Source: an uncultured Christensenellaceae bacterium
Lineage (GTDB): Bacteria; Bacillota; Clostridia; Christensenellales; UBA3700
Direction of reading: 5' to 3'
NCBI GenBank assembly: GCA_944383905.1
Contig: CALWRI010000009.1
Location: forward strand, 1,339-65,338
Length of the DNA stretch: 64,000 bases
Shown here: piece by piece, positions 439 to 64,000 of the stretch
Layout: the number at the start of each line of letters is the position of its first letter
Position numbering within the stretch: the stretch's first letter is position 1
Translations under genes and position numbers: made by a program
Notes under the pieces: model-generated
Told to the model about the DNA's origin: nothing
The model's input: the letters and a program-made list of their open reading frames with translations, nothing else
Databases searched by the model: none

Positions 439-508
439 ATTGAAAAAAGTCGGACAAAAACATTTCTTGTGCGTTTATATATTGAGAGAGATCTCTCGGG
501 AGGAGAAA

Positions 509-3328
509 ATGAAGAAAACGACTTTATTTGTCGCGATAGCGGCGATCGTGGTATTGTTGGCGGCATCTTTTGCGGCGTGCGAAAAGATAAAGACCGAAGA
601 CGTTGTCGGAGATTGGTATCTCGAAGACGGAAAACTGACCGTTTCCGCCGACGGAGCGACGTTCAACGGAGAAAAAAAGGAGTTTGTTCTCAACGCGAAG
701 AACGGCTTTTTTTCTGTTTCAGGACAAGAATATCTTGTCGGGGACAATAATTCAAGCGTATACGCAAAAGACTCCAAAGCGCAAAACGTCATGACGAGAC
801 CGGCAAAAAGGGATTCTTTCGCAGAAGGAGAGGGCTTTACTTATACGGACGCTCAAGGCAGGCTGTGCACTCTCGCATTCCATGCCGGAAACAAAGTTTC
901 GGTCAGTTACGTCGGGCAGGGGACACTCGGCGCGGATCTCGGCGAAGGCACTTATTCATATTCGGACGGGGTCGTAACTGCGCTGGTGCAGATGGCTCGC
1001 GGAGACGTCGTCGTGCTTTTCTATTACATAGACAAAAACGTGGATCTCTATACAAAAGCGGGAGTCAGGGAGGTTCCCGACTTTGCGAAAACCGCGTACG
1101 ACGATCAGTTGGCGAAAGCAAACGGGCAGCAGACGACCTTCACCGTTACATACACGGCGGGAGAGGGAGGAAGCGTCTCGGGCGAAACGCAGCAGACGGT
1201 CAGAAAAAACGCGGATACGACTTCTGTGAGAGCGGTTGCGGAAGAAGGTTACGAGTTTGAAAAGTGGAGCGACGGAAACACGTCTGCATCCCGCAAGGAA
1301 ACAAACGTAACTTCTGATATGACGTTGAAGGCGGTGTTTACAAAAATCAGATATACCGTGACGTATTCCGCAGGCGCAAACGGCAGCGTGAGCGGAGTGA
1401 CGACGCAAAAAGTCGCACACGGCGAAAACGGAAAAAAAGTGGTGGCGATCCCTGCCTCCGGATACGTCTTTGCCGGTTGGAGCGACGGAGTCAAAACGGC
1501 TGAAAGATATGAAGAAAAAGTAAAGGGAAACAAGTCTTTTACCGCCAATTTCGCAAAAGGAGTTACCGTCAATTACGTTGCGGCGCTCGGCGGCAGCATA
1601 CAGGGAAAAGACAGTCAGTTCGTGGGCGTGGGGACAGAAGGTTCGACGGTCGTGGCGATCCCCGCCGACGGATACGTCTTTTCAGGCTGGAGCGACGGCT
1701 GGTTCCTGCCCGCGAGAACGGATACGGGTGAAAAAGACGTGACCTATACCGCGTATTTTGCGGAGACTCAAAAAGTGGTCGTGCGTTATTCGGCAGGTAA
1801 AGGAGGCAGGATAGAAGGTTGCGCGGTGCAGCAGGTTGACATCGGCAAAGACGCGCTCAAGGTCGTCGCGGTAGCGGATACGGGCTATGTGTTCGCGGCA
1901 TGGAGCGACGGCGTTATGACCGCAGAGAGGACGGATACCGCAGTCGTTTCCGCAATCAACGCGGAGGCGAGATTCATAAAGATCGCGCAGAGCATCGTGA
2001 CGATAGATTACGGCGACGGTCAGACCTTCAAAGTCACTATGTCAAAGGGAGACAAAGTCAACTTCCCGATACCCGAAAGGCCCGGGTACCGTTTCGTCGC
2101 GTTCGATACTCCGCAAGGAAATATAGTCAACGGCGAAGTGTGGCAGCAGGATCAGGACTGTGAAGTTTCCGCGATATGGGAGAATATAACTTACAATATC
2201 ATTCTCAATGCCGGTTTGGGGAGCGTAAGTCAGAACACTCTGAATTATACCGTTGACGATCTGCCTCTGGCGTTGCCCGACGCTGCGCACGAGACGCTGG
2301 TTTTCAACGGTTGGAGATCGCCCGACGGCAATTATGTCGAGCAGATAACCGCGGACAACTTCGGAGACATATATCTCTCGGCTCATTTTTCGGAAGACAA
2401 CGAGAGACTGACCTATACTCTCAATCAGGCGGGCACGGGATACATTGTCAGCGGATACGAAGGAAAGAGCGGGAAGATAATCGTTCCTTCCGAAAAGGAC
2501 GGCTTGCCCGTGACGGAAATCGCCGCGAAAGTGTTTGAATACAACGCGGGCGTTACATACTTCAGAGCGGGAGAAAATCTCGAAAGCATCGGGGCGCAGG
2601 CATTTTACTATTGCAAAAATCTGACTGAAGTCGATCTTTCAAGGGGCATCGATCTCGTTGTTATCGGCGATTCCGCGTTTGACAAGTGCTCAAAGTTGTC
2701 CGTCGCAAATCTCGACAACTGCGCCGCTCTCAAAACGATCGGTAACGGAGCGTTTTCCGCGACCGCACTGACGGAGATAAATCTGAAAGGATGCGTTTCG
2801 CTTGAAAGTATACAGAGTTACGCTTTCCTCAACACAATGCTTGCGACGATCGACGTTTCCGGTCTGGCGAACCTCAAAGAGGTCGGACTCAATGCGTTTT
2901 CGTGTTCAACGATGACGAACGCGTATTTCAACGACTGCGAGTCGCTTGCCTCGATGATCGGAGTTTTCGGAAATGGAACGCTCAAAAAGCTTGAGATAAG
3001 AAACTGTCCCTCCCTCGGCTCGTACGACGTGCTTTTCGGAGAAGCAACCGTCGAGACTCTCGACATCACGGGCAGTTGCGGAAGTTTCCCTCCCGGAAGG
3101 GATCTGCCGTCGTCGGTTAACGTGACGAAACTGTATCTCGACGACGCACAGCCGCTCAACTCAATGTACGGAGAAAATGCGTTCTTCCTCGCAAAAGCGC
3201 AAAGAATAGCGTTGGCGGGAGACGGGGAAGTGAACAATTCGTATTTCTTCGAAAACTTCAAGGCAACGGGAGCAACCGAAGACAGAAACGGCGAGACTTA
3301 CACGATCTATACGAGAAAGACGGCATAA
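509..3328 (+). CDS. Large surface lipoprotein: four divergent InlB B-repeat (Flg_new_2-like) units, two InlB-type repeats and C-terminal BspA-type leucine-rich repeats
   Basis: Start moved to ATG509 (RBS GGAGG, MKKTTLFVAIAAIVVLLAASFAAC lipobox). Repeats V-Y-A-x-x-GG-V-G...GY-F-x-WSDG occur four times; LRR units such as LESIGAQAFYYCKNL and LKTIGNGAFSAT. Confidence 0.8.
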   Translation: MKKTTLFVAIAAIVVLLAASFAACEKIKTEDVVGDWYLEDGKLTVSADGATFNGEKKEFVLNAKNGFFSVSGQEYLVGDNNSSVYAKDSKAQNVMTRPAKRDSFAEGEGFTYTDAQGRLCTLAFHAGNKVSVSYVGQGTLGADLGEGTYSYSDGVVTALVQMARGDVVVLFYYIDKNVDLYTKAGVREVPDFAKTAYDDQLAKANGQQTTFTVTYTAGEGGSVSGETQQTVRKNADTTSVRAVAEEGYEFEKWSDGNTSASRKETNVTSDMTLKAVFTKIRYTVTYSAGANGSVSGVTTQKVAHGENGKKVVAIPASGYVFAGWSDGVKTAERYEEKVKGNKSFTANFAKGVTVNYVAALGGSIQGKDSQFVGVGTEGSTVVAIPADGYVFSGWSDGWFLPARTDTGEKDVTYTAYFAETQKVVVRYSAGKGGRIEGCAVQQVDIGKDALKVVAVADTGYVFAAWSDGVMTAERTDTAVVSAINAEARFIKIAQSIVTIDYGDGQTFKVTMSKGDKVNFPIPERPGYRFVAFDTPQGNIVNGEVWQQDQDCEVSAIWENITYNIILNAGLGSVSQNTLNYTVDDLPLALPDAAHETLVFNGWRSPDGNYVEQITADNFGDIYLSAHFSEDNERLTYTLNQAGTGYIVSGYEGKSGKIIVPSEKDGLPVTEIAAKVFEYNAGVTYFRAGENLESIGAQAFYYCKNLTEVDLSRGIDLVVIGDSAFDKCSKLSVANLDNCAALKTIGNGAFSATALTEINLKGCVSLESIQSYAFLNTMLATIDVSGLANLKEVGLNAFSCSTMTNAYFNDCESLASMIGVFGNGTLKKLEIRNCPSLGSYDVLFGEATVETLDITGSCGSFPPGRDLPSSVNVTKLYLDDAQPLNSMYGENAFFLAKAQRIALAGDGEVNNSYFFENFKATGATEDRNGETYTIYTRKTA

Positions 3329-10376: not shown

Positions 10377-12091
10377 AAAGTCTCGGCGGATATTTGTCGG
10401 TACACAGAAAACGTATGGCGGCGGGGCTGGCGATAAAGTCGCTCGGCACCGTGGCGGAGCTGTTTCTGCCGATGATAATGGCGTATATGATCGACGAGGT
10501 CGCGCCGACGGGCAGCGTACTCGCGCTCTCGCTCTGGGGCGTGGCGATGCTCGTTTTCGCCGTAGTCGCGTGGAGCGGCAACGTAATCGCCAACCGTATG
10601 GCTTCGCGCGTCGCGAGGGATACGACGGAGAAGATCAGAAACGATCTGTTTTCGTCCACGCTGTATCTTTCCGCGCGTCAGACCGACGAAGTGACCGTGC
10701 CTTCGCTCGTGTCGCGTCTCTCGTCCGACACTTACAACGTGCACAACATGATAGGCATGATACAGAGGCTGGGGGTGCGCGTTCCGATACTGCTCGTCGG
10801 CGGCGTCGCGCTCACTTTCAGCGTCGAGCCGGTGCTCGCGCTCGTACTGCTCGCGGTCGTGCCCTTTCTTACGGTCATAGTCATCGTGGTTTCGTCCAAG
10901 GGCATAACGCTTTATACCGATCTTCAGCGCGCGGTGGACACGATGGTCCGCAAGGTGCGCGACGATTACACGGGCATACGGGTGATAAAGGCGCTTTCGC
11001 GCACGGAATACGAAAAAGAGGGCTTCGGCAGGATAAACGACGACGTCGTCGCCAAGGAGACGAAGGCAGGCGTCACTATAAGCGCGACCAATCCCGTTAT
11101 GAACGCGGTGCTCAACCTGGGTATGACGGTAGTCGTGCTCGTCGGCGCGTACAGGGTGGACAAGGGGCTTGCGCAGGTCGGCGAGATAATCGCGTTCACG
11201 TCCTATTTCACGATAATCCTCAACGCGGTCATATCGATAAGCAGGATATTCGTCAACGTCAGCAAGGGTTCGGCTTCGGCAAAACGTATATGCGCGGTGC
11301 TCAATATGCCCGACGAGCTTGTCACTGACGAGGCTTTTGCGGGCGAGGAAGGCGAAAAGGGAAGCGTGAAATTTGAAAACGTGACCTTCTCGTACGACGG
11401 AGCGCCGGCGCTCAAAAACGTGAATTTCGAGATAGGAAGAGGAGAAACGCTTGGCGTTATAGGGGCAACGGGCAGCGGCAAGACGACTCTCGTCGCGCTG
11501 TTGCTGCGTTTTTACGACGCGGACAAGGGCAGGGTGCTCGTGGACGGCGTCGACGTCAGGGGATACGACGAAAAGAAGCTGCGGGCAAAATTCGGCGTGG
11601 TACTGCAAAACGACTTTCTTATGGCGGCGAGCGTATCCGAAAACGTGAAATTCGACAGGGAAATATCGGACGAGGATATGAAAAGGGCGGCGAAAAACGC
11701 GAAGGCGGCGCCCTTCGTCGAAGCGCTCGGAGACGGCTATGACAGTATGCTCACGGTGCGCGGCGCCAATTTCAGCGGCGGGCAGAAGCAGAGGATGCTC
11801 ATAGCGCGCGCCCTTGCGGGCGACCCCGAGATACTCGTGCTCGACGATTCGTCCAGCGCGCTCGACTACAAGACGGACGCGCAGTTGAGGGCAACGCTCG
11901 AAAAGGAGTATCCCGATACGACCAAGATAATCATTGCGCAGAGGATAAGCTCCGTCCGTTTTGCGGACAAGATACTCGTGCTCGAGAGGGGAGAGGCGGC
12001 GGGCTTCGGCGACGACGCGACCCTGATGAAGACCTGCGAGGCTTACAGGCGGATATACGATTCTCAACACGAAGGGGGTGACGGACGGTGA
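10373..12091 (+). CDS. ABC exporter subunit (TMD-NBD) carrying the non-canonical catalytic residues of a heterodimer
   Basis: TM domain plus GATGSGKT, FSGGQKQR; Walker B LDDSSS (Asp for Glu) and AQR (Gln for His switch). Confidence 0.9.
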   Translation: MKSLGGYLSVHRKRMAAGLAIKSLGTVAELFLPMIMAYMIDEVAPTGSVLALSLWGVAMLVFAVVAWSGNVIANRMASRVARDTTEKIRNDLFSSTLYLSARQTDEVTVPSLVSRLSSDTYNVHNMIGMIQRLGVRVPILLVGGVALTFSVEPVLALVLLAVVPFLTVIVIVVSSKGITLYTDLQRAVDTMVRKVRDDYTGIRVIKALSRTEYEKEGFGRINDDVVAKETKAGVTISATNPVMNAVLNLGMTVVVLVGAYRVDKGLAQVGEIIAFTSYFTIILNAVISISRIFVNVSKGSASAKRICAVLNMPDELVTDEAFAGEEGEKGSVKFENVTFSYDGAPALKNVNFEIGRGETLGVIGATGSGKTTLVALLLRFYDADKGRVLVDGVDVRGYDEKKLRAKFGVVLQNDFLMAASVSENVKFDREISDEDMKRAAKNAKAAPFVEALGDGYDSMLTVRGANFSGGQKQRMLIARALAGDPEILVLDDSSSALDYKTDAQLRATLEKEYPDTTKIIIAQRISSVRFADKILVLERGEAAGFGDDATLMKTCEAYRRIYDSQHEGGDGR

Positions 12092-13845
12092 AAGACGACG
12101 GGATAGCAAAGTCGGATCGCCGCGCCGTCGCGGTCAGACTCGCAAAATATTTCATGCGCTACAAGTTCAGCGTGCTGTTCGCGTTCTTCCTTATGCTGGG
12201 CAGCAACCTGTTCGCGCTTCTCGGTCCGCTCCTTACCGGCAAAGCGATAAACGCGATAGACCTCGAGGAGGGCGTAGACTTTGCCGCTGTGACGCAATAC
12301 TGCATACTCATGGCTGTGTTTTACGTCGTGTCGAGTGTGCTGTCTTATATACTTTCGGTCGTCATGATAAAGTTGAGTCAGAAGATCGTCAAGAGTATGA
12401 GAAAGGATCTGTTCGACAAGATCCTCTCGCTTCCCGTCGGTTATCTCGACAAAATGCAGGCGGGCGATCTGATCAACCGCATATCTTACGATATAGATAC
12501 CGTCAACGCGTCTCTGTCCAACGATATATTGCAGGCGGCGACGGGCGTCGTAACCGTCATAGGCGCGTTGATAGGTATGCTGGCGATCTCGCCCGCGCTG
12601 TTCGGCGTATTTGCGATCACGATACCTCTTTCGATATTCATTACCGTGCAGAGGAGCAGGCAGGTCAGACCCCTTTTCCGCAAGAGATCGGGCAAGCTCG
12701 CGCAGCTCAACGGGTTCTCGGAAGAAATGATCTCGGGAATAAAGACGATAAAGGCGTACGGCAGAGAGGACAAGATAATCGGGCGCTTCGCGCAGAGGAA
12801 CAAGGACGCCGTCGACGCGTATTACGCGGCGGATTATTACGGCAGTCTGATCGGACCTTCGGTCAACTTCGTCAACAATCTGGGCACGGTGCTCATAAGC
12901 ACCGCGGGGTCGCTTATGTATCTTTACGGAATGATAATGCTGGGCGACATATCCTCGTTTCTTCTGTACGCGAGAAAGTTCTCGGGACCGATAAACGAAT
13001 ATGCCAACATAATGAGCGAGATACAATCCGCGCTCGCGGCGGCGGAAAGAGTTTTCAGGCTGCTCGACGAGCTGCCGGAAGGCGCGACCGACAACGCGGA
13101 GACGTCTCTCGAGGATCCCGTCGGCGACGTCGCGTTTGAGCACGTCCGCTTCGGGTACGATCCCGAAAAGGTGATAATAAAAGACCTGTCCTTTGAGGCA
13201 AAGGCGGGGCAGACCGTCGCGATAGTCGGACCTACGGGCGCCGGCAAGACGACTCTCGTCAACCTTCTCATGCGTTTTTACGACCCGCAGGACGGCAGGA
13301 TCACTCTTGACGGCAGAGACACGAGAGAATACACGAGAGACAGCCTGCGCGCCGCGTTTTCGATGGTACTTCAGGACACATGGCTTTTTGAAGGCACCGT
13401 CAGGGAGAATATAGCATACGGCAAGGTCGGCGCGACGGACGAGGAGATAAGAAAGGCGGCGGCGGACGCCAATATCGCCGACTTCGTCGACGCGCTCCCG
13501 CAAGGGTACGACACGAGGGTTACGGACGGGGGCGTAAATCTTTCCAAAGGGCAGAAACAGCTGATGACGATAGCCCGCGCCATGCTGTCGCCCGCGCATC
13601 TGCTGATACTTGACGAGGCGACATCCAACGTCGACACGCGTACGGAGCTGATGATACGCGACGCGATGAACAGACTGATGAAAGGCAAGACGTGTTTCGT
13701 GATCGCGCACAGACTTTCGACGATAAGAAACGCCGATCTGATACTCGTCGTCAAGGACGGAGACATCGTCGAGAGGGGAAGACACGAGGAGCTGCTCGCA
13801 AAAGGCGGGTTTTACAGCGAGATATACAACGCGCAGTTCGAGTAA
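12088..13845 (+). CDS. ABC exporter subunit (TMD-NBD) with canonical catalytic residues
   Basis: GPTGAGKT, LSKGQKQ, LILDEATSNVD, AHRL; GTG start overlaps the upstream stop. Confidence 0.9.
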   Translation: MKDDGIAKSDRRAVAVRLAKYFMRYKFSVLFAFFLMLGSNLFALLGPLLTGKAINAIDLEEGVDFAAVTQYCILMAVFYVVSSVLSYILSVVMIKLSQKIVKSMRKDLFDKILSLPVGYLDKMQAGDLINRISYDIDTVNASLSNDILQAATGVVTVIGALIGMLAISPALFGVFAITIPLSIFITVQRSRQVRPLFRKRSGKLAQLNGFSEEMISGIKTIKAYGREDKIIGRFAQRNKDAVDAYYAADYYGSLIGPSVNFVNNLGTVLISTAGSLMYLYGMIMLGDISSFLLYARKFSGPINEYANIMSEIQSALAAAERVFRLLDELPEGATDNAETSLEDPVGDVAFEHVRFGYDPEKVIIKDLSFEAKAGQTVAIVGPTGAGKTTLVNLLMRFYDPQDGRITLDGRDTREYTRDSLRAAFSMVLQDTWLFEGTVRENIAYGKVGATDEEIRKAAADANIADFVDALPQGYDTRVTDGGVNLSKGQKQLMTIARAMLSPAHLLILDEATSNVDTRTELMIRDAMNRLMKGKTCFVIAHRLSTIRNADLILVVKDGDIVERGRHEELLAKGGFYSEIYNAQFE

Positions 13846-13905
13846 AAACGCCTGTCCGCGGGAGAAAAGGCGAAGACGGGCAGGACCGTCGATCGCAAAA
13901 GAAAG

Positions 13906-13930
13906 ACGCGTCCCGATCGGGACGCGTTTT
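13906..13930. terminator. Bidirectional terminator
   Basis: Perfect palindrome ACGCGTCCCGATCGGGACGCGT flanked by A and T runs between convergent genes. Confidence 0.75.
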
Positions 13931-14451
13931 CACAGTCTTTTTTCAAACAAAAAATATTCCTGCATGCCCGGCAGGTCTTTTTCTTCTTCGGGCACGACGT
14001 AATCGGGATCGACGTGTTTTTCGTTGAAGAATTCGACGACGCTGAATCCGCATTTGTTGACGTAAAAATTCACGTTGCGCTTTTCAAAGTACGGCGTGAC
14101 GGTGCGCCACACCTTTACTGAGGGATATGTCTTTTCTATGAGTTGCCAGGCATTCAGACCTATGCCGAGGTTGTGAAATTCGGGAAGAACGAAGAACAGT
14201 TCGAGAGAGCCTTCGTCCTTTCCGTTCGTGCTCACCACCGCGCCGCCCGCGTATTCGCCGTCGCAGAAAATGCGGTAAGTATCGGCTTTTTCGTCTTCGA
14301 TGCTTTCGGTTACGGTTCTTGTGCACGGCACCGGACTGCCTTTGAAGTCGGGAAAAGTTTCTTTTACCGCGACGCCGAAAGAGCGTTGCAGGTCTTTTAC
14401 GAACCCGTCCGTTTCTTCTTTGCGTAGAGGCGACAGAGTTATTCCTTTCAT
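13930..14451 (-). CDS. GNAT family N-acetyltransferase
   Basis: Start moved to ATG14451 (RBS GGAG). LELFFVLPEFHNLGIGLNAW, TPYFEKRNVNFYVNKCGF. Confidence 0.85.
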   Translation of the reverse strand: MKGITLSPLRKEETDGFVKDLQRSFGVAVKETFPDFKGSPVPCTRTVTESIEDEKADTYRIFCDGEYAGGAVVSTNGKDEGSLELFFVLPEFHNLGIGLNAWQLIEKTYPSVKVWRTVTPYFEKRNVNFYVNKCGFSVVEFFNEKHVDPDYVVPEEEKDLPGMQEYFLFEKRL

Positions 14452-59868: not shown

Positions 59869-59897
59869 TTGACAGCGTCGGATTTTGCGTTTATCAT
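59869..59897 (+). promoter_or_regulatory. SigA promoter of the EAL/TasA-like operon
   Basis: TTGACA-17 bp-TATCAT. Confidence 0.7.
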
Positions 59898-59950
59898 ATC
59901 AGTATAAGGCGTTATTTTCGCGTTGTGTGGTAAGGAGGCAAATTCGCCGT

Positions 59951-60637
59951 ATGGGGAAAACGGCTACCGTCAAAAAACCCGTGTCATATTGCTACATGCC
60001 CTACTTTGGCGGGGAAGGCGGGACAAAATTAATCGAGGTCTGGCAGGTGCTGGAAGACGAAGTGCTCGGCGTTTTGTATCCGTGGCAATACGGCCCCGCG
60101 GCACAGACGAGTTCCCGCATAGAAACCCTCAATTTTCTCGCTCTCACGCAATTCGAAGAGGATTCGCAAAGATATCCCGACGTCAGATTCGTTTACAAGA
60201 TAAGCAGCCGCCTTCTCGGGGAAGGCAACGTGCACAGACTTGCGGGAATGCTCAAGGACAATCTGGTCTTGTGTTTCGACATATTCCAGCTTGAAGCGTT
60301 CGGCGACAGGAACAGCCGCATAGGGCTCAATTTTCTGACAAAGAGGGGAGCGCACGTCATGATCGAGGGTATCGAGCGTGCTCCGATGGACGTAATAGCC
60401 AAGTATAATCCCGAGTATTTTCTCTTGGATTACCGCTATTACAATCAGAGCAACTTTTCTCTTCTTTCGATATTCTCCAATATCGCAAATCAGAAGGGCG
60501 TAAAACTCGTGCTCGGCAACGCGGTCAACAAAAACAACGTCGCGCTATTTGAAAAAGAAGGCGTTGCGGCAATAGGCGGCAGCGCATACGCAAAACCGAA
60601 AAAGAAGCTGGAAACGCTTCTCGGGAAAGCAAACTGA
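59951..60637 (+). CDS. Degenerate stand-alone EAL-domain protein
   Basis: Start ATG59951 (RBS AAGGAGG). EAL layout is recognisable (YMPY, IEVW..LEDEVLGVLYP, GAHVMIEG, PEYFLLD, GVKLVLG...GGSAYAKP) but most catalytic residues are replaced. Confidence 0.7.
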   Translation: MGKTATVKKPVSYCYMPYFGGEGGTKLIEVWQVLEDEVLGVLYPWQYGPAAQTSSRIETLNFLALTQFEEDSQRYPDVRFVYKISSRLLGEGNVHRLAGMLKDNLVLCFDIFQLEAFGDRNSRIGLNFLTKRGAHVMIEGIERAPMDVIAKYNPEYFLLDYRYYNQSNFSLLSIFSNIANQKGVKLVLGNAVNKNNVALFEKEGVAAIGGSAYAKPKKKLETLLGKAN

Positions 60638-60714: not shown

Positions 60715-61665
60715 ATGAAAAAGAGTTTGGTAATCACAACTATCGCGACCATGCTCGTTATCGTAGTTGCTTTGACCACCGCGACCTTCGCATGGTTCTC
60801 GACCAGCACCGTCAGCACCGTCAACAACAACTTCAACGTGTCACCGAGTGATTCCGCGGTAAGTATTTACAGATGGAAACCCGAACAGGGCGCCACTGCC
60901 GGCGCTTACGAGGCTACGCCTCTGACCGCCAACTGGGCGATCGGTGCGGGCGGCGATTACGAATGGGACTATGCTACGGCAACGACTGAGGGCAGCGCTA
61001 ACGACGCTTATACGCTTCTGATGCCGACAGAAGAGATCCTCGGTACCGAATTTGCCGAAAATACGGGCGATACGGCGGATAAAGACGGCTTGCCCAGCGT
61101 CAACTTCTTCAGAGCGCAGAAAAGCAGCGCCACCCAAGACAAGGTCACCGCGATCAACGTACATCCCGTTGCCGTCAGGTTCCGCCTGATGCCAGGTAAG
61201 AGCGACATGACGATCAGGGCGACGATCACCGTTTCCGTTGCTGCAGGCGCTACTTCAAAAGACTATCTTGCGGCACAGGCGGCGAGAGTGTTGCTCATCG
61301 GCAAGACCGAAGCTACGGCTACCGAAGAAACCCCCAATATAATGATCGCGACCAACTACAAGTATTCCACCAGCAGCGCAATCGCTGTTGACAACGTGTT
61401 GACTTCCGCAAGCTATTCGACGACCAACTATTCCCAGACGCTCACCGGATCCGATCTTATCGGCATCCTCGACACGTCCGTGATAAAGTCCGGTACCACC
61501 GCTGTGAACAGCGCGACTTCTAAGCTTGAGTTCTCCGCTGACCCGACCAACGCACTCGACTGCGTGCTTTACATCTGGTTTGACGGCGGCACGGCAAGCG
61601 ACAGCGCGGCTCTCGGTGCGATATCCGTAAGCGTCGACTTCTCAGAAGTAACCGAAGAGCCCTGA
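60715..61665 (+). CDS. TasA/CalY-like exported protein with a SipW-class signal peptide
   Basis: MKKSLVITTIATMLVIVVALTTATFAWF signal; Thr/Ser/Ala-rich beta-type mature part; C-terminal LYIWFDG motif. Confidence 0.7.
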   Translation: MKKSLVITTIATMLVIVVALTTATFAWFSTSTVSTVNNNFNVSPSDSAVSIYRWKPEQGATAGAYEATPLTANWAIGAGGDYEWDYATATTEGSANDAYTLLMPTEEILGTEFAENTGDTADKDGLPSVNFFRAQKSSATQDKVTAINVHPVAVRFRLMPGKSDMTIRATITVSVAAGATSKDYLAAQAARVLLIGKTEATATEETPNIMIATNYKYSTSSAIAVDNVLTSASYSTTNYSQTLTGSDLIGILDTSVIKSGTTAVNSATSKLEFSADPTNALDCVLYIWFDGGTASDSAALGAISVSVDFSEVTEEP

Positions 61666-61728: not shown

Positions 61729-61806
61729 ACGCGCCTGAAAGGGCGTTTTTTGGAAAAAATTGCCGTTTTCAGACCCGTTTTTGGGTCTGTTTTTTTGATT
61801 TTGGTA

Positions 61807-61835
61807 TTGACAGTGCCTGAAGATTATAATATAAT
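61807..61835 (+). promoter_or_regulatory. Consensus SigA promoter
   Basis: TTGACA-17 bp-TATAAT. Confidence 0.8.
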
Positions 61836-61909: not shown

Positions 61910-62743
61910 ATGGGAAAGAGAGAGTTCACAAAGTCCAAACAGGATGAGATCATAAAAAATCAAAAGATCAGGGCGGCGAGCAAAAGGCGCACCGCTACGA
62001 CCGTCATAATCATTTTTCTCTTGTGCGCGCTTCTGCTTACCGGTGCCACCTGGGGCACGATCACCTTTATCGACGCCAACAGTATGAGGATCGTCGTCGA
62101 CAAGAGCAACGTCGGGGAGATATCCATCAGCAAGACTGCGGACTTTTCTTCGCCCACGACCATGCTCAAAATGGACGGACCCGAGGAGATGTCCAACATC
62201 ACTTATGACTGGATACTCAAAGACGAGGTTTTCGGCAAAGAGGGAGATCATCACGGCGACAACTATATCGCATACAGCTTTTTCCTCAAAAACGTCAGTG
62301 ATTCCGACATTCTTTTCAAAAGCTCGATCGTGCTCAACTACGTCTCCAAGGACATTGAGAGGACGGTCAGGATAGTGGTCGTCGAAGATGAAGAAAAGGC
62401 GACCTGTTATGCCGTCACGAGGTCCGACGGTTCGCCGGAATATATAGCGTACGATACGGACGAAAAGGCGACTCAAAAACCGCTGCCGCTCGGCAACAGC
62501 CGTCTCGACGAGCTGCTCGGCACCAACGTGACGACGCCGTTTGTGACCGACGAGCCGGTGGACAGCAACGTCAAGGTCTTTGAGTCTGCGGACGTGTTCC
62601 TCGCTGTGGACGAGGTAAAAAAGTACACCGTTCTGATCTGGATCGAAGGCTCGGACAGCGATTGCATGGACGACGTCATCGGGGCAAAAGTCAATTTTGA
62701 ATACAGCTTCCGCGTCACGCAGGTCGACGCAATAAAACCGTAA
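61910..62743 (+). CDS. Membrane-anchored extracellular protein, apparent structural relative of the TasA-like protein
   Basis: Basic N-terminus, TM helix, YIAYSFFLKN, TVRIVVV and C-terminal LIWIEGSDSDC motif. Confidence 0.65.
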   Translation: MGKREFTKSKQDEIIKNQKIRAASKRRTATTVIIIFLLCALLLTGATWGTITFIDANSMRIVVDKSNVGEISISKTADFSSPTTMLKMDGPEEMSNITYDWILKDEVFGKEGDHHGDNYIAYSFFLKNVSDSDILFKSSIVLNYVSKDIERTVRIVVVEDEEKATCYAVTRSDGSPEYIAYDTDEKATQKPLPLGNSRLDELLGTNVTTPFVTDEPVDSNVKVFESADVFLAVDEVKKYTVLIWIEGSDSDCMDDVIGAKVNFEYSFRVTQVDAIKP

Positions 62744-62758
62744 GGTGAGGGGAAATCT

Positions 62759-64000
62759 ATGGACAACATGTTAAATTTTATCAAAGCGTTTCTGGGGGTT
62801 CTGTGGGGAGGCATAAGTCAGATATTCACCGGGATTTTCGGCGGTATCTTTCAGATGTTCAATTTTCCCGCATACTACGACGCTTTCTGGGTGAATGCCA
62901 ACGGATGGGGCGCGGGAGAGTGGATCCTCGCCGTGCTCATAGCCATTCTCGTCGTCGCCATTCTCGGCGCGCTGATATGGCTGTTGGTCTGGTTTTCCAT
63001 CCGCTTCTTCAAGAGGTTCAGAAAGCCCGTTATAAATCAGGATCTGCTTGACGAGATACACAATCTGAAAAAGCAGATACTCAAAGTCACGCAGGAAAAA
63101 GACAGGATCCTCCGCATGAAGGTCACGGGCGCGGAAGGCGACGCGTTCCTCGAAGGTCTCGAAGCCGAAGAAGGTGAAGAAGGTCAGGGTGAGGACAGCA
63201 AACTCAAAGAAGGAGAGAGCCGATTCTTCAAACTTACCGAAGTCGATCAGATATACGAAAACTACACTCCGCCGGAGTATGACAACGAGATCACCCTTTC
63301 GGAGATATGCGACCGCTTCCGCAACTTTGCGGCAAGCAGACTGCGCCTCTATTACGAACCGCGCATAATCCGTCTTTTCTGGGCGGGTATGTCCACGACG
63401 AGACTTCTGATCCTGCAAGGTATTTCCGGTACAGGTAAAACGTCGCTCGCATACGCGACGGGGCAGTTCCTCGACAACCCGGCGACGATAGCTTCGGTCC
63501 AGCCGTCCTGGCGTGACCGTACCGAGCTTTTCGGATACTTCAACGAATTTACCAAGCGCTTCAACGAGACCGAGGTCCTCAAAAAGATGTACGAAGCGAC
63601 CTGGAACGAGAACATCTACATCACCGTCCTCGACGAAATGAACATTGCGCGTGTCGAGTATTATTTTGCGGAAATGCTTTCTATCCTCGAAATGCCGTCC
63701 CGCGACAACTGGATCGTCGACCTCGTCCCGAGCGGCTGGCCGAACGACCCCAAACACGTCGTCAAAGGAAGATTTACCCTGCCGCAGAATATGTGGTTTA
63801 TCGGCACCGCGAACAACGACGACTCGACCTTCGCGATCTCGGATAAGGTCTACGACCGTGCGATCCCGATCAACATCAATACGAAAGGCGTGCCTTTCGA
63901 CGCTCCCGACACGGACAAACTTTACGTTTCGTTCAAGCACGTCGAAGGTATGTTCAAAAAGGCGCAGGAAGAGCACAAGGTCTCGCAGGAGATCATCGAC
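62759..64000 (+). CDS. Membrane-anchored McrB-family AAA+ GTPase (3' end outside window)
   Basis: Translated by hand: ATG62759 (RBS GAGGGG), open for 414 codons to the window end. TM helix WILAVLIAILVVAILGALIWLLVWF, coiled coil, Walker A GISGTGKT (63419), Walker B VLDEMN (63626), GTANNDD (63803), YDR arginine finger. Confidence 0.85.
   Translation, partial: MDNMLNFIKAFLGVLWGGISQIFTGIFGGIFQMFNFPAYYDAFWVNANGWGAGEWILAVLIAILVVAILGALIWLLVWFSIRFFKRFRKPVINQDLLDEIHNLKKQILKVTQEKDRILRMKVTGAEGDAFLEGLEAEEGEEGQGEDSKLKEGESRFFKLTEVDQIYENYTPPEYDNEITLSEICDRFRNFAASRLRLYYEPRIIRLFWAGMSTTRLLILQGISGTGKTSLAYATGQFLDNPATIASVQPSWRDRTELFGYFNEFTKRFNETEVLKKMYEATWNENIYITVLDEMNIARVEYYFAEMLSILEMPSRDNWIVDLVPSGWPNDPKHVVKGRFTLPQNMWFIGTANNDDSTFAISDKVYDRAIPININTKGVPFDAPDTDKLYVSFKHVEGMFKKAQEEHKVSQEIID

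Follow-up and report, generated by a model that had tools for sequence, protein, structure and literature searches.

The guanosine triphosphatase (GTPase) McrB forms an asymmetric hexamer, in which a Lys or Arg residue of its partner McrC repositions the Asn/Asp of the McrB signature and stimulates the hydrolysis of guanosine triphosphate (GTP) (PMC7680126). The NxD clade, a major branch of McrB homologues, contains the systems designated CoCoNuT and CoCoPALM; CoCoPALM was named as a class by Bell et al. in one paragraph and deferred to a later paper (eLife 2024, PMC11090510), and the text supplementary files of that article do not mention it. The present analysis concerns a gene for an McrB-like AAA+ nucleoside triphosphatase (NTPase) that lies at the end of a 64,000-nucleotide stretch of DNA, hereafter the window, from an uncultured Christensenellaceae bacterium (positions 1,339-65,338 of contig CALWRI010000009.1, assembly GCA_944383905.1; G000:C9:1339-65338). 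Locus coordinates beyond the window end are numbered on stretch L002 of the same contig. The encoded protein carries a transmembrane (TM) and coiled-coil N-terminus in front of its ATPase core, is accompanied by a DUF2357 partner and by SipW-type signal peptidases, and is very probably a CoCoPALM McrB homologue. Its domain anatomy, family placement, synteny, and gene fusions are established here. A role of the system in the assembly or processing of surface fibres or matrix, rather than in DNA restriction, is the reading that we develop below, and we give it slightly less than an even chance.

Membrane anchor of the McrB-like protein

A preliminary description of the window had proposed that a frame beginning at ATG 62759 stays open as far as the window end, for a gene that is missing from the track of open reading frames (ORFs). 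The frame is as described, and more than 8000 homologous database proteins match the ORF, which establishes it as a real gene on the + strand; the long antisense ORF at 62771-63976 is its shadow. The stop codon lies 294 nt beyond the window end (window-equivalent 64294), giving a protein of 511 amino acids (aa; L002:1098-2633), and the ATG follows the stop codon of the upstream gene, p277, by 15 nt. An AlphaFold2 model of the protein, built on 130 relatives, has a mean predicted local distance difference test (pLDDT) score of 92.7. It contains helices at residues 2-24, 26-33, and 36-47, a long helix at 52-87, and another at 93-124, which are followed by a disordered acidic segment (125-156), the AAA+ core, and a C-terminal helical extension of 120 aa. 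The gene and the features of its N-terminal region are as follows, with the evidence for each in brackets.

62759..64000, + strand: McrB-like AAA+ NTPase gene, first 414 of 511 codons (ORF, homology, AlphaFold2 model, Foldseek)
62745..62754, + strand: ribosome-binding site AGGTGAGGGG, 5-14 nt 5' of ATG 62759 (sequence)
62771..62860, + strand: Gly-rich amphipathic or hydrophobic helices, aa 5-34 (AlphaFold2 helices 2-24 and 26-33, pLDDT >90; conserved)
62921..63001, + strand: TM helix, aa 55-81 (Kyte-Doolittle 3.25; AlphaFold2 helix 52-87, pLDDT >90)
63002..63028, + strand: basic stretch RFFKRFRKP (sequence; basic character conserved in homologues)
63041..63118, + strand: short coiled-coil-type helix DLLDEIHNLKKQILKVTQEKDRILRM, aa 95-120 (AlphaFold2 helix 93-124; conserved)
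63152..63211, + strand: acidic disordered linker (aa 125-156, pLDDT 47-58; acidic, length varies among homologues)

The TM helix is strongly predicted and is kept in all members of the clade of proteins with one or two TM helices, and the basic stretch RFFKRFRKP that follows it predicts, by the positive-inside rule, that the ATPase is cytoplasmic. Helices 2-47 are amphipathic or weakly hydrophobic, and because the N-terminal helices are TM-like in hydropathy in several homologues, a second membrane segment within them is possible. Helix 93-124 is hydrophobic at six of eight a/d positions over four heptads, which is a register-specific count, and it was not flagged by a crude heptad score over 28 residues. 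The whole layout of helices, TM segment, coiled coil, and linker is conserved in homologues at 45-80% identity. The preliminary description, which had proposed an amphipathic segment, a TM helix, a coiled coil, and an acidic linker with no reader of modified bases, is therefore borne out by hydropathy, by the AlphaFold2 model, and by conservation among homologues; a Pfam/NCBIfam scan finds no domain in aa 1-200 and detects no DNA-binding or modified-base domain. Homology to DivIC/FtsB (PF04977) was not detected by HMMER in this N-terminus. The sole DivIC/FtsB-like match in the genome falls in the C-terminal TM helix and charged tail of the short SipW described below (E 0.004, below the cut-off; G000:C9:69779-69958, corresponding to L002 6781-6960).

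This anatomy bears on the simplest assignment for an McrB homologue, that of a subunit of a classical Type IV (modification-dependent) restriction system. The McrB-type motor motifs would suit such a subunit, but a membrane anchor occupies the N-terminus, a reader of DNA or modified bases is absent, and the partner protein lacks a PD-(D/E)xK nuclease. Restriction of this kind is refuted by the domain content, and its probability is negligible; the earlier judgement that classical methyl-DNA restriction is unlikely thus stands, and the missing nuclease of the partner is added to the missing reader.

Placement in the McrB family and motifs of the AAA+ core

The McrB-like protein matches Pfam AAA_5 just above the cut-off, and its only NCBIfam match is the McrB equivalog (6e-8, far below the equivalog score). 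When all PDB chains were searched with phmmer, E. coli McrB alone was returned (2.5e-7), with the same outcome for the family profile, and no MoxR, RavA, NorQ, MCM, or dynein chain appeared at E<=1. E. coli McrB (6hz4/6ut6) is also the top match in Foldseek. The preliminary description had placed the AAA domain with McrB rather than with MoxR or other AAA families, and this placement is supported by the exclusive sequence match, the top Foldseek rank, the Nx(x)D signature, and a DUF2357 (McrC N-domain) partner in the operon.

The competing explanation is a chaperone of the MoxR type, or of another AAA_5 type unrelated to McrBC, beside which the DUF2357 gene would lie by coincidence. It draws on the fact that Pfam AAA_5 is common to MoxR and dynein, and on Foldseek E-values of MoxR (2r44), NorQ, and RavA that are within two orders of magnitude of that of McrB. 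Against it stand the absence of any MoxR-type sequence match at E<=1, the invariance of the Nx(x)D signature, the lack of a VWA gene in the cluster, 43% identity to the CoCoNuT protein CnuB, and the adjacency of a DUF2357 gene in 67 of the 72 loci with enough sequence, among the best 80 loci described below. Such a chaperone is accordingly very improbable.

Conservation of the core motifs was counted in an alignment of 130 representative relatives.

63215..63247, + strand: pre-AAA+ motif ESRFFKLTEVD (alignments; R155, F156, and L159 invariant, D163 in at least 90%)
63419..63442, + strand: Walker A GISGTGKT, aa 221-228 (G221, G224, G226, and K227 invariant, 130/130)
63620..63637, + strand: Walker B ITVLDE, aa 288-293 (D292 130/130, E293 129/130)
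63803..63829, + strand: McrB signature, NxD variant, GTANNDDST, aa 349-357 (T350, N352, D354, and S356 130/130)
63842..63862, + strand: DKVYDRA with invariant R367 (conserved; aligns with the DYALRRR segment of E. coli McrB)

Walker A, Walker B (in the extended string ITVLDEMNIARVEYYF, aa 288-303), and GTANxDxST are intact, as had been stated in the preliminary description, which missed that the signature is the NxD variant and not the NxxD of E. coli. GTANNDDST aligns with GLMNTADRS of E. coli McrB, and 125 of the relatives have D or E at position 355, giving the consensus N-x-D-(D/E)-S-T, the variant by which Bell et al. delimit the NxD branch (PMC11090510). In McrB, the lid helix carries a trans-acting Arg finger with a second Arg beside it in place of sensor II; at the position of this Arg-Arg pair, R434 (FGNRI) is here the sole invariant Arg and is preceded by N433 (123/130). 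The GTP specificity of McrB is conferred by divergent elements that precede the AAA+ core, and the position that reads the guanine base in E. coli McrB is the counterpart of the location of the ESRFxKLxxVD element (PMC7680126). By analogy, this element may take part in base recognition, which we offer as a lead only.

Soluble relatives of 700-870 aa share ~43% identity with the protein over aa 150-511. The operon of one of them, with the order TerY-like VWA (von Willebrand factor A) / kinase / PP2C / SF1 (superfamily 1) helicase / 517-aa protein / ATPase / 676-aa protein, is that of a typical CoCoNuT, with the arrangement TerY-P / SF1 helicase / CnuE / CnuB / CnuC, and the soluble relatives are CnuB proteins. 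In a FastTree phylogeny of the ATPase domain, the proteins with one or two TM helices form one clade (support 0.81, and 0.994 for its core), and the ATPase clade of the McrB-like protein is sister to CoCoNuT CnuB.

Another class of NxD McrB-like proteins is also membrane-bound; its members have at least three TM helices and 550-700 aa and form a separate 40-protein clade nested among the soluble CoCoNuT-like ones (examples are L105:2007-5447, L107:1190-4445, and P0281-P0363 of alignment A1). The next gene in each case encodes a protein of ~460-520 aa that matches DUF2357 below the threshold, and SipW genes are absent from the vicinity. In addition, genome G022 of the same family encodes, at L015:5443-7095, an orphan multi-TM paralogue of 550 aa (28% identity) that has a degenerate Walker A, LILRGNKEDVNCTDLP, and lies without a DUF2357 partner among amino-acid biosynthesis genes.

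DUF2357 partner, SipW signal peptidases, and conserved neighbours

The partner gene and the signal peptidase genes lie just beyond the window end and were missed in the preliminary description. The next-but-one gene downstream of the McrB-like gene encodes a 680-aa protein with a DUF2357 domain (McrC N-domain; 1.2e-9, above the cut-off). After residue 310 the protein consists of an acidic low-complexity segment, a K/E-rich heptad region (422-500), and an acidic tail; its C-terminal 370 aa are acidic or coiled-coil. DUF2357 is matched by 26 of 37 partner homologues, all other matches being to coiled-coil families; no nuclease family matches the protein or any of the 37 homologues, and phmmer of the protein against PDB chains returns nothing meaningful.

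SipW-type enzymes are signal peptidases of the endoplasmic reticulum/archaeal type. Two are encoded downstream of the McrB-like gene on the same strand, one of 480 aa (NF046067 2e-16; L002:2777-4219) and one of 244 aa (NF046067 3e-20, TIGR02228 63 bits over the cut-off; L002:6270-7004). A survey of 124 SipW ORFs in L024-L103 revealed a motif in the cytoplasmic tail after the last TM helix, EE-IK(R/K)xAIEEYL, typically EEEIK(R/K)(R/K)AIEEYL. The motif is present in 47 of 53 SipWs encoded directly upstream of the ATPase gene, in 9 of 30 downstream of the partner, and in 12 of 32 other SipWs, as compared with 13 of 671 background ORFs (2%), and is a candidate docking site. A further connection is provided by fusion proteins of 984-998 aa in three species representatives of Ruminococcus, in which a coiled coil of ~500 aa connects an N-terminal DUF2357 domain with a complete SipW domain at the C-terminus.

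L080:9828-12824, L084:7353-10307, and L102:11787-14765: DUF2357-SipW fusions

In close relatives of the carriers, the same parts are encoded by two separate genes (749 and 239 aa). As the N-terminus of SipW is cytoplasmic, the fusion is topologically sensible and agrees with a cytoplasmic partner tethered to that end of SipW. Judged from gene structure, the fusions argue for physical proximity of the partner tail and SipW.

The association extends well beyond the source genome. The McrB-like gene is present in 14 of 15 genomes of the genus, in 5 of 10 other genera of the family, and in one or two of 16 other families of the order, and a scan of one genome per species finds a relative in at least 573 species. 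Synteny was counted in the best 80 loci from species-representative genomes, in which ORFs were called and searched with ten cluster proteins. These loci belong to Christensenellales, Ruminococcus/Oscillospirales, Acutalibacteraceae, metagenome-assembled genomes (MAGs) labelled as Lachnospiraceae, and RF39-type Bacilli, and they include an isolate, Ruminococcus sp. FC2018 (L090). The DUF2357 gene of the 67 loci given above lies directly 3' of the ATPase gene, and a SipW gene lies directly 5' of it in 50 of 65; where at least 5 kb is available on both sides (n=44), SipW occurs within 10 kb in all 44 and the p277 family in 42. The typical order is p277 / secreted protein(s) / SipW / ATPase / DUF2357 / (SipW). 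Identity declines with taxonomic distance, from 87-97% within the genus through 69-79% within the family to 52-66% in other orders, and a search of 72,556 plasmids and 50,697 phages found no full-length homologue.

These data also bear on the possibility that the cluster is a membrane-associated anti-phage or conflict system, which would sense infection and respond without a nuclease, through receptor remodelling or shedding or through abortive infection. All characterised or predicted relatives of the ATPase are defence systems (McrBC; CoCoNuT in PMC11090510), the PADLOC candidate PDC-M26A is matched at 1.3e-36, the distribution among genera and families is patchy, and an uncurated 'Bacteriophage sp.' record contains a 36%-identical ATPase domain. 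The PDC-M26A match covers the ATPase core only (aa 197-318), however, and probably reflects ancestry common with CoCoNuT-like candidates rather than evidence of defence. The operon contains no nuclease or other recognisable effector, the examined neighbourhoods show no defence genes, and plasmids and phages carry no full-length copy, whereas the strict synteny with structural secreted proteins and signal peptidases holds in different orders, the sequences are highly conserved, and GC content is native (52.5% in the cluster, matching 51% in the genome). We consider a defence function unlikely on this balance.

Several loci differ in composition from the typical order. At L014:4533-5816, a 427-aa TM protein with no family match and a degenerate P-loop-like stretch is encoded directly 5' of the ATPase gene and may be a decayed paralogue. 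L020:4475-9554 contains a tandem ATPase duplication in the order ATPase, DUF2357, ATPase, with one DUF2357 partner identified, and adjoins a surface protein of >3000 aa. The locus lacks SipW, and the 669-aa gene that follows its second ATPase was rejected as a further partner, as it is not DUF2357-like. In Acutalibacteraceae and related MAGs, a giant signal-peptide protein of 2000-2600 aa with almost no Pfam domains is encoded directly 3' of the DUF2357 gene (L044:13816-21530, L051, L052, L056, L060, L061, L063, and others).

Upstream of the McrB-like gene, the window contains the following features of the cluster.

59885..60637, + strand: degenerate EAL-like protein at the cluster head, start codon uncertain (Pfam EAL 6e-5, 23 bits, cut-off 31.3)
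60715..61665, + strand: secreted protein of the beta-sandwich family, 316 aa, with a SipW-class-like signal peptide, …TATFAWFS… (ORF; W.EG.D..C homology)
61731..61799, + strand: two terminator-like hairpins with T tails, 3' of the 316-aa gene (L002 70-85, 109-128)
61807..61835, + strand: consensus sigma-70-type promoter TTGACA-17-TATAAT, 12/12 (L002 146-174)
61910..62743, + strand: p277, 277 aa, basic cytoplasmic N-tail, beta sandwich (AlphaFold2 pLDDT 88, helix 8-54)

Since the consensus promoter follows the two hairpins and the next strong terminator (L002 8568-8595) comes after the leucine-rich repeat (LRR) gene, the seven genes p277 / McrB-like / SipW / DUF2357 / SipW / 282-aa / LRR look like one operon. 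The hairpins and promoter at 61731-61835 set the 316-aa gene apart from this operon headed by p277. The proteins encoded further downstream, of 282 aa, 213 aa (LRR_5), and 195 aa, all have signal-like N-termini.

Among the accessory genes of the system, p277 is conserved best, and its product may be membrane-anchored or processed by SipW. Its invariant residues are W244, E246, G247, D249, and C252; together with secreted proteins whose signals end in (T/S)x(F/Y)A(W/F)F, it forms one superfamily with an invariant W.EG.D..C near the C-terminus (alignment A4). This superfamily matches no Pfam or NCBIfam family as a whole, TIGR04088 being matched by 1 of 37 members, and the p277 family profile finds nothing significant in the PDB. 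Foldseek of the p277 model gives no match at E<=1e-3, the best fibre-like match is a TasA-like archaeal bundling pilin (7ueg, E 9e-3), and TasA itself is not in the top 50. Homology of p277 and the secreted proteins to TasA was considered and dropped, as neither sequence nor fold gives a significant PDB match.

Homologues of the EAL-like protein stand at the head of the cluster in ~9 of 83 loci, the source genome included, in a single-sequence search, and in L018 genes for GGDEF and EAL proteins lie on either side (485-3098, 11446-14295) of a system with 53% identity. These genes enter into another explanation, in which the ATPase is a regulator or quality-control component, an NTP-dependent switch that licenses SipW or clears stalled precursors with an FtsH-like logic; such a device may respond to cyclic dimeric guanosine monophosphate through the degenerate EAL protein. 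The McrB GTPase is itself a partner-activated, switch-like enzyme (PMC7680126), the motif conserved on SipW tails is of the docking type, the long disordered acidic tails of the partner suit a scaffold, and degenerate EAL, GGDEF, and EAL genes accompany the cluster. On the other side, there is no protease or degradation domain, and the EAL association is confined to those few loci. A regulatory device of this kind is somewhat less probable still than a defence function, and the switch and motor readings are inseparable with sequence data.

Proposed mechanism and comparison with known systems

For the role in surface-fibre or matrix assembly, we propose that the ATPase would form a ring on the cytoplasmic face of the membrane, in which the DNA-reading head has been swapped for an anchor of one certain TM helix and possibly two. 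By analogy with McrBC, the ring would be a hexamer, tethered by 6-12 TM helices and short coiled coils, and NTP hydrolysis (of GTP, by family precedent) would be triggered as the ring takes up the DUF2357 domain of the partner. The coiled-coil tail of the partner and the SipW tail motif would connect the ring to the signal peptidase, and the output would be a mechanical or switch-like action on precursors, leading to the processing, membrane extraction, or polymerisation of surface-fibre or matrix subunits. Within this scheme, the inferred elements are the hexameric state, the activating effect of the partner, the preference among nucleotides, the contact with SipW, and the role in fibre assembly. 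The broader reading is that an McrBC chassis has been exapted into a SipW-docked, NTP-driven membrane machine that processes, extracts, or polymerises beta-sandwich fibre subunits in Gram-positive gut anaerobes; it is put forward tentatively, as somewhat more likely to be wrong than right. Equally tentatively, we would take the fusions and the SipW tail motif as markers of the physical interface of this machine, and an energy-coupled pathway of this kind would differ from sortase pili, type IV pili, and passive TasA assembly.

Several observations weigh against these proposals. The relatives of the ATPase, McrBC, CoCoNuT, and PDC-M26A, are defence or conflict systems, and the distribution is patchy within the family (5 of 10 other genera) and the order. 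MCM, MoxR-like 2r44, and dynein score nearly as well as McrB in Foldseek, so that fold alone does not discriminate among them, and the catalytic geometry is putative, with one Arg (N433-R434) where McrB has an Arg-Arg pair. The fibre-subunit identity of the neighbours is weak, TasA-like being a label taken from context, and to our knowledge TasA-type fibres need no dedicated NTPase. In the distant relatives L014 and L020, the ATPase-DUF2357 pair occurs without SipW beside giant secreted surface proteins, indicating that SipW is not obligatory for the core pair. A full-text literature search found no later CoCoPALM paper and no experiments.

If the proposals are correct, a motor known only from DNA restriction would power or gate the assembly of cell-surface structures, and Gram-positive bacteria would gain an energy-coupled route to surface fibres of a kind not described before. 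They would also supply a function for the NxD branch of McrB GTPases, of which we know of no characterised member. The carriers are abundant and poorly studied gut Clostridia (Christensenellales, Ruminococcus, Acutalibacteraceae, RF39-type Bacilli).

Compared with E. coli McrBC (6hz4, 6ut6), the system shares the AAA+ fold, Walker A and B, a signature that replaces sensor I, and a DUF2357 partner in the operon. It differs in its low identity to McrB (~18-21%), in having NxD where E. coli McrB has NxxD, and in carrying a membrane anchor in place of the DUF3578 DNA reader; the PD-(D/E)xK nuclease of E. coli McrC is absent from the partner, and the 120-aa C-terminal helical extension is a feature of the present system. 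The likeness to CnuB/CnuC of Type II/III CoCoNuT is closer, as the ATPases belong to the same NxD clade, the DUF2357 partner is often without an active nuclease, and coiled coils are present. CnuB, in contrast, is soluble with a long N-terminal coiled coil, and CoCoNuT systems always include HEPN or other nucleases, an SF1 helicase, and a TerY-P triad, none of which is present here. On the side of secretion, the tapA-sipW-tasA operon of B. subtilis and sipW-bsaABC of C. perfringens likewise place a SipW gene beside secreted proteins with SipW-class-like signals, with several paralogous subunits per operon. These operons contain no NTPase, the SipW proteins described here have long charged cytoplasmic tails, and the secreted proteins have no significant sequence or fold match to TasA.

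The closest correspondence is with CoCoPALM, a published class that the preliminary description did not name. One of its defining features is an FtsB-like TM and coiled-coil module, found with HHpred in the original paper, whereas HMMER did not detect FtsB/DivIC here; the other defining features are all present, and no observed feature contradicts membership. The present system likewise comprises an NxD-clade McrB-like GTPase with a TM and coiled-coil N-terminus in Bacillota, coiled coils on both the McrB homologue (helix 93-124) and the McrC homologue (422-500), and associated genes of the signal peptidase family, here two SipW-type genes in the operon. As the class has already been named, the value of the present analysis lies in what it adds to PMC11090510, namely the operon boundaries, the two SipW paralogues per operon with their tail motif, the DUF2357-SipW fusions, and the p277 / W.EG.D..C family, together with a cultured carrier, Ruminococcus sp. 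FC2018.

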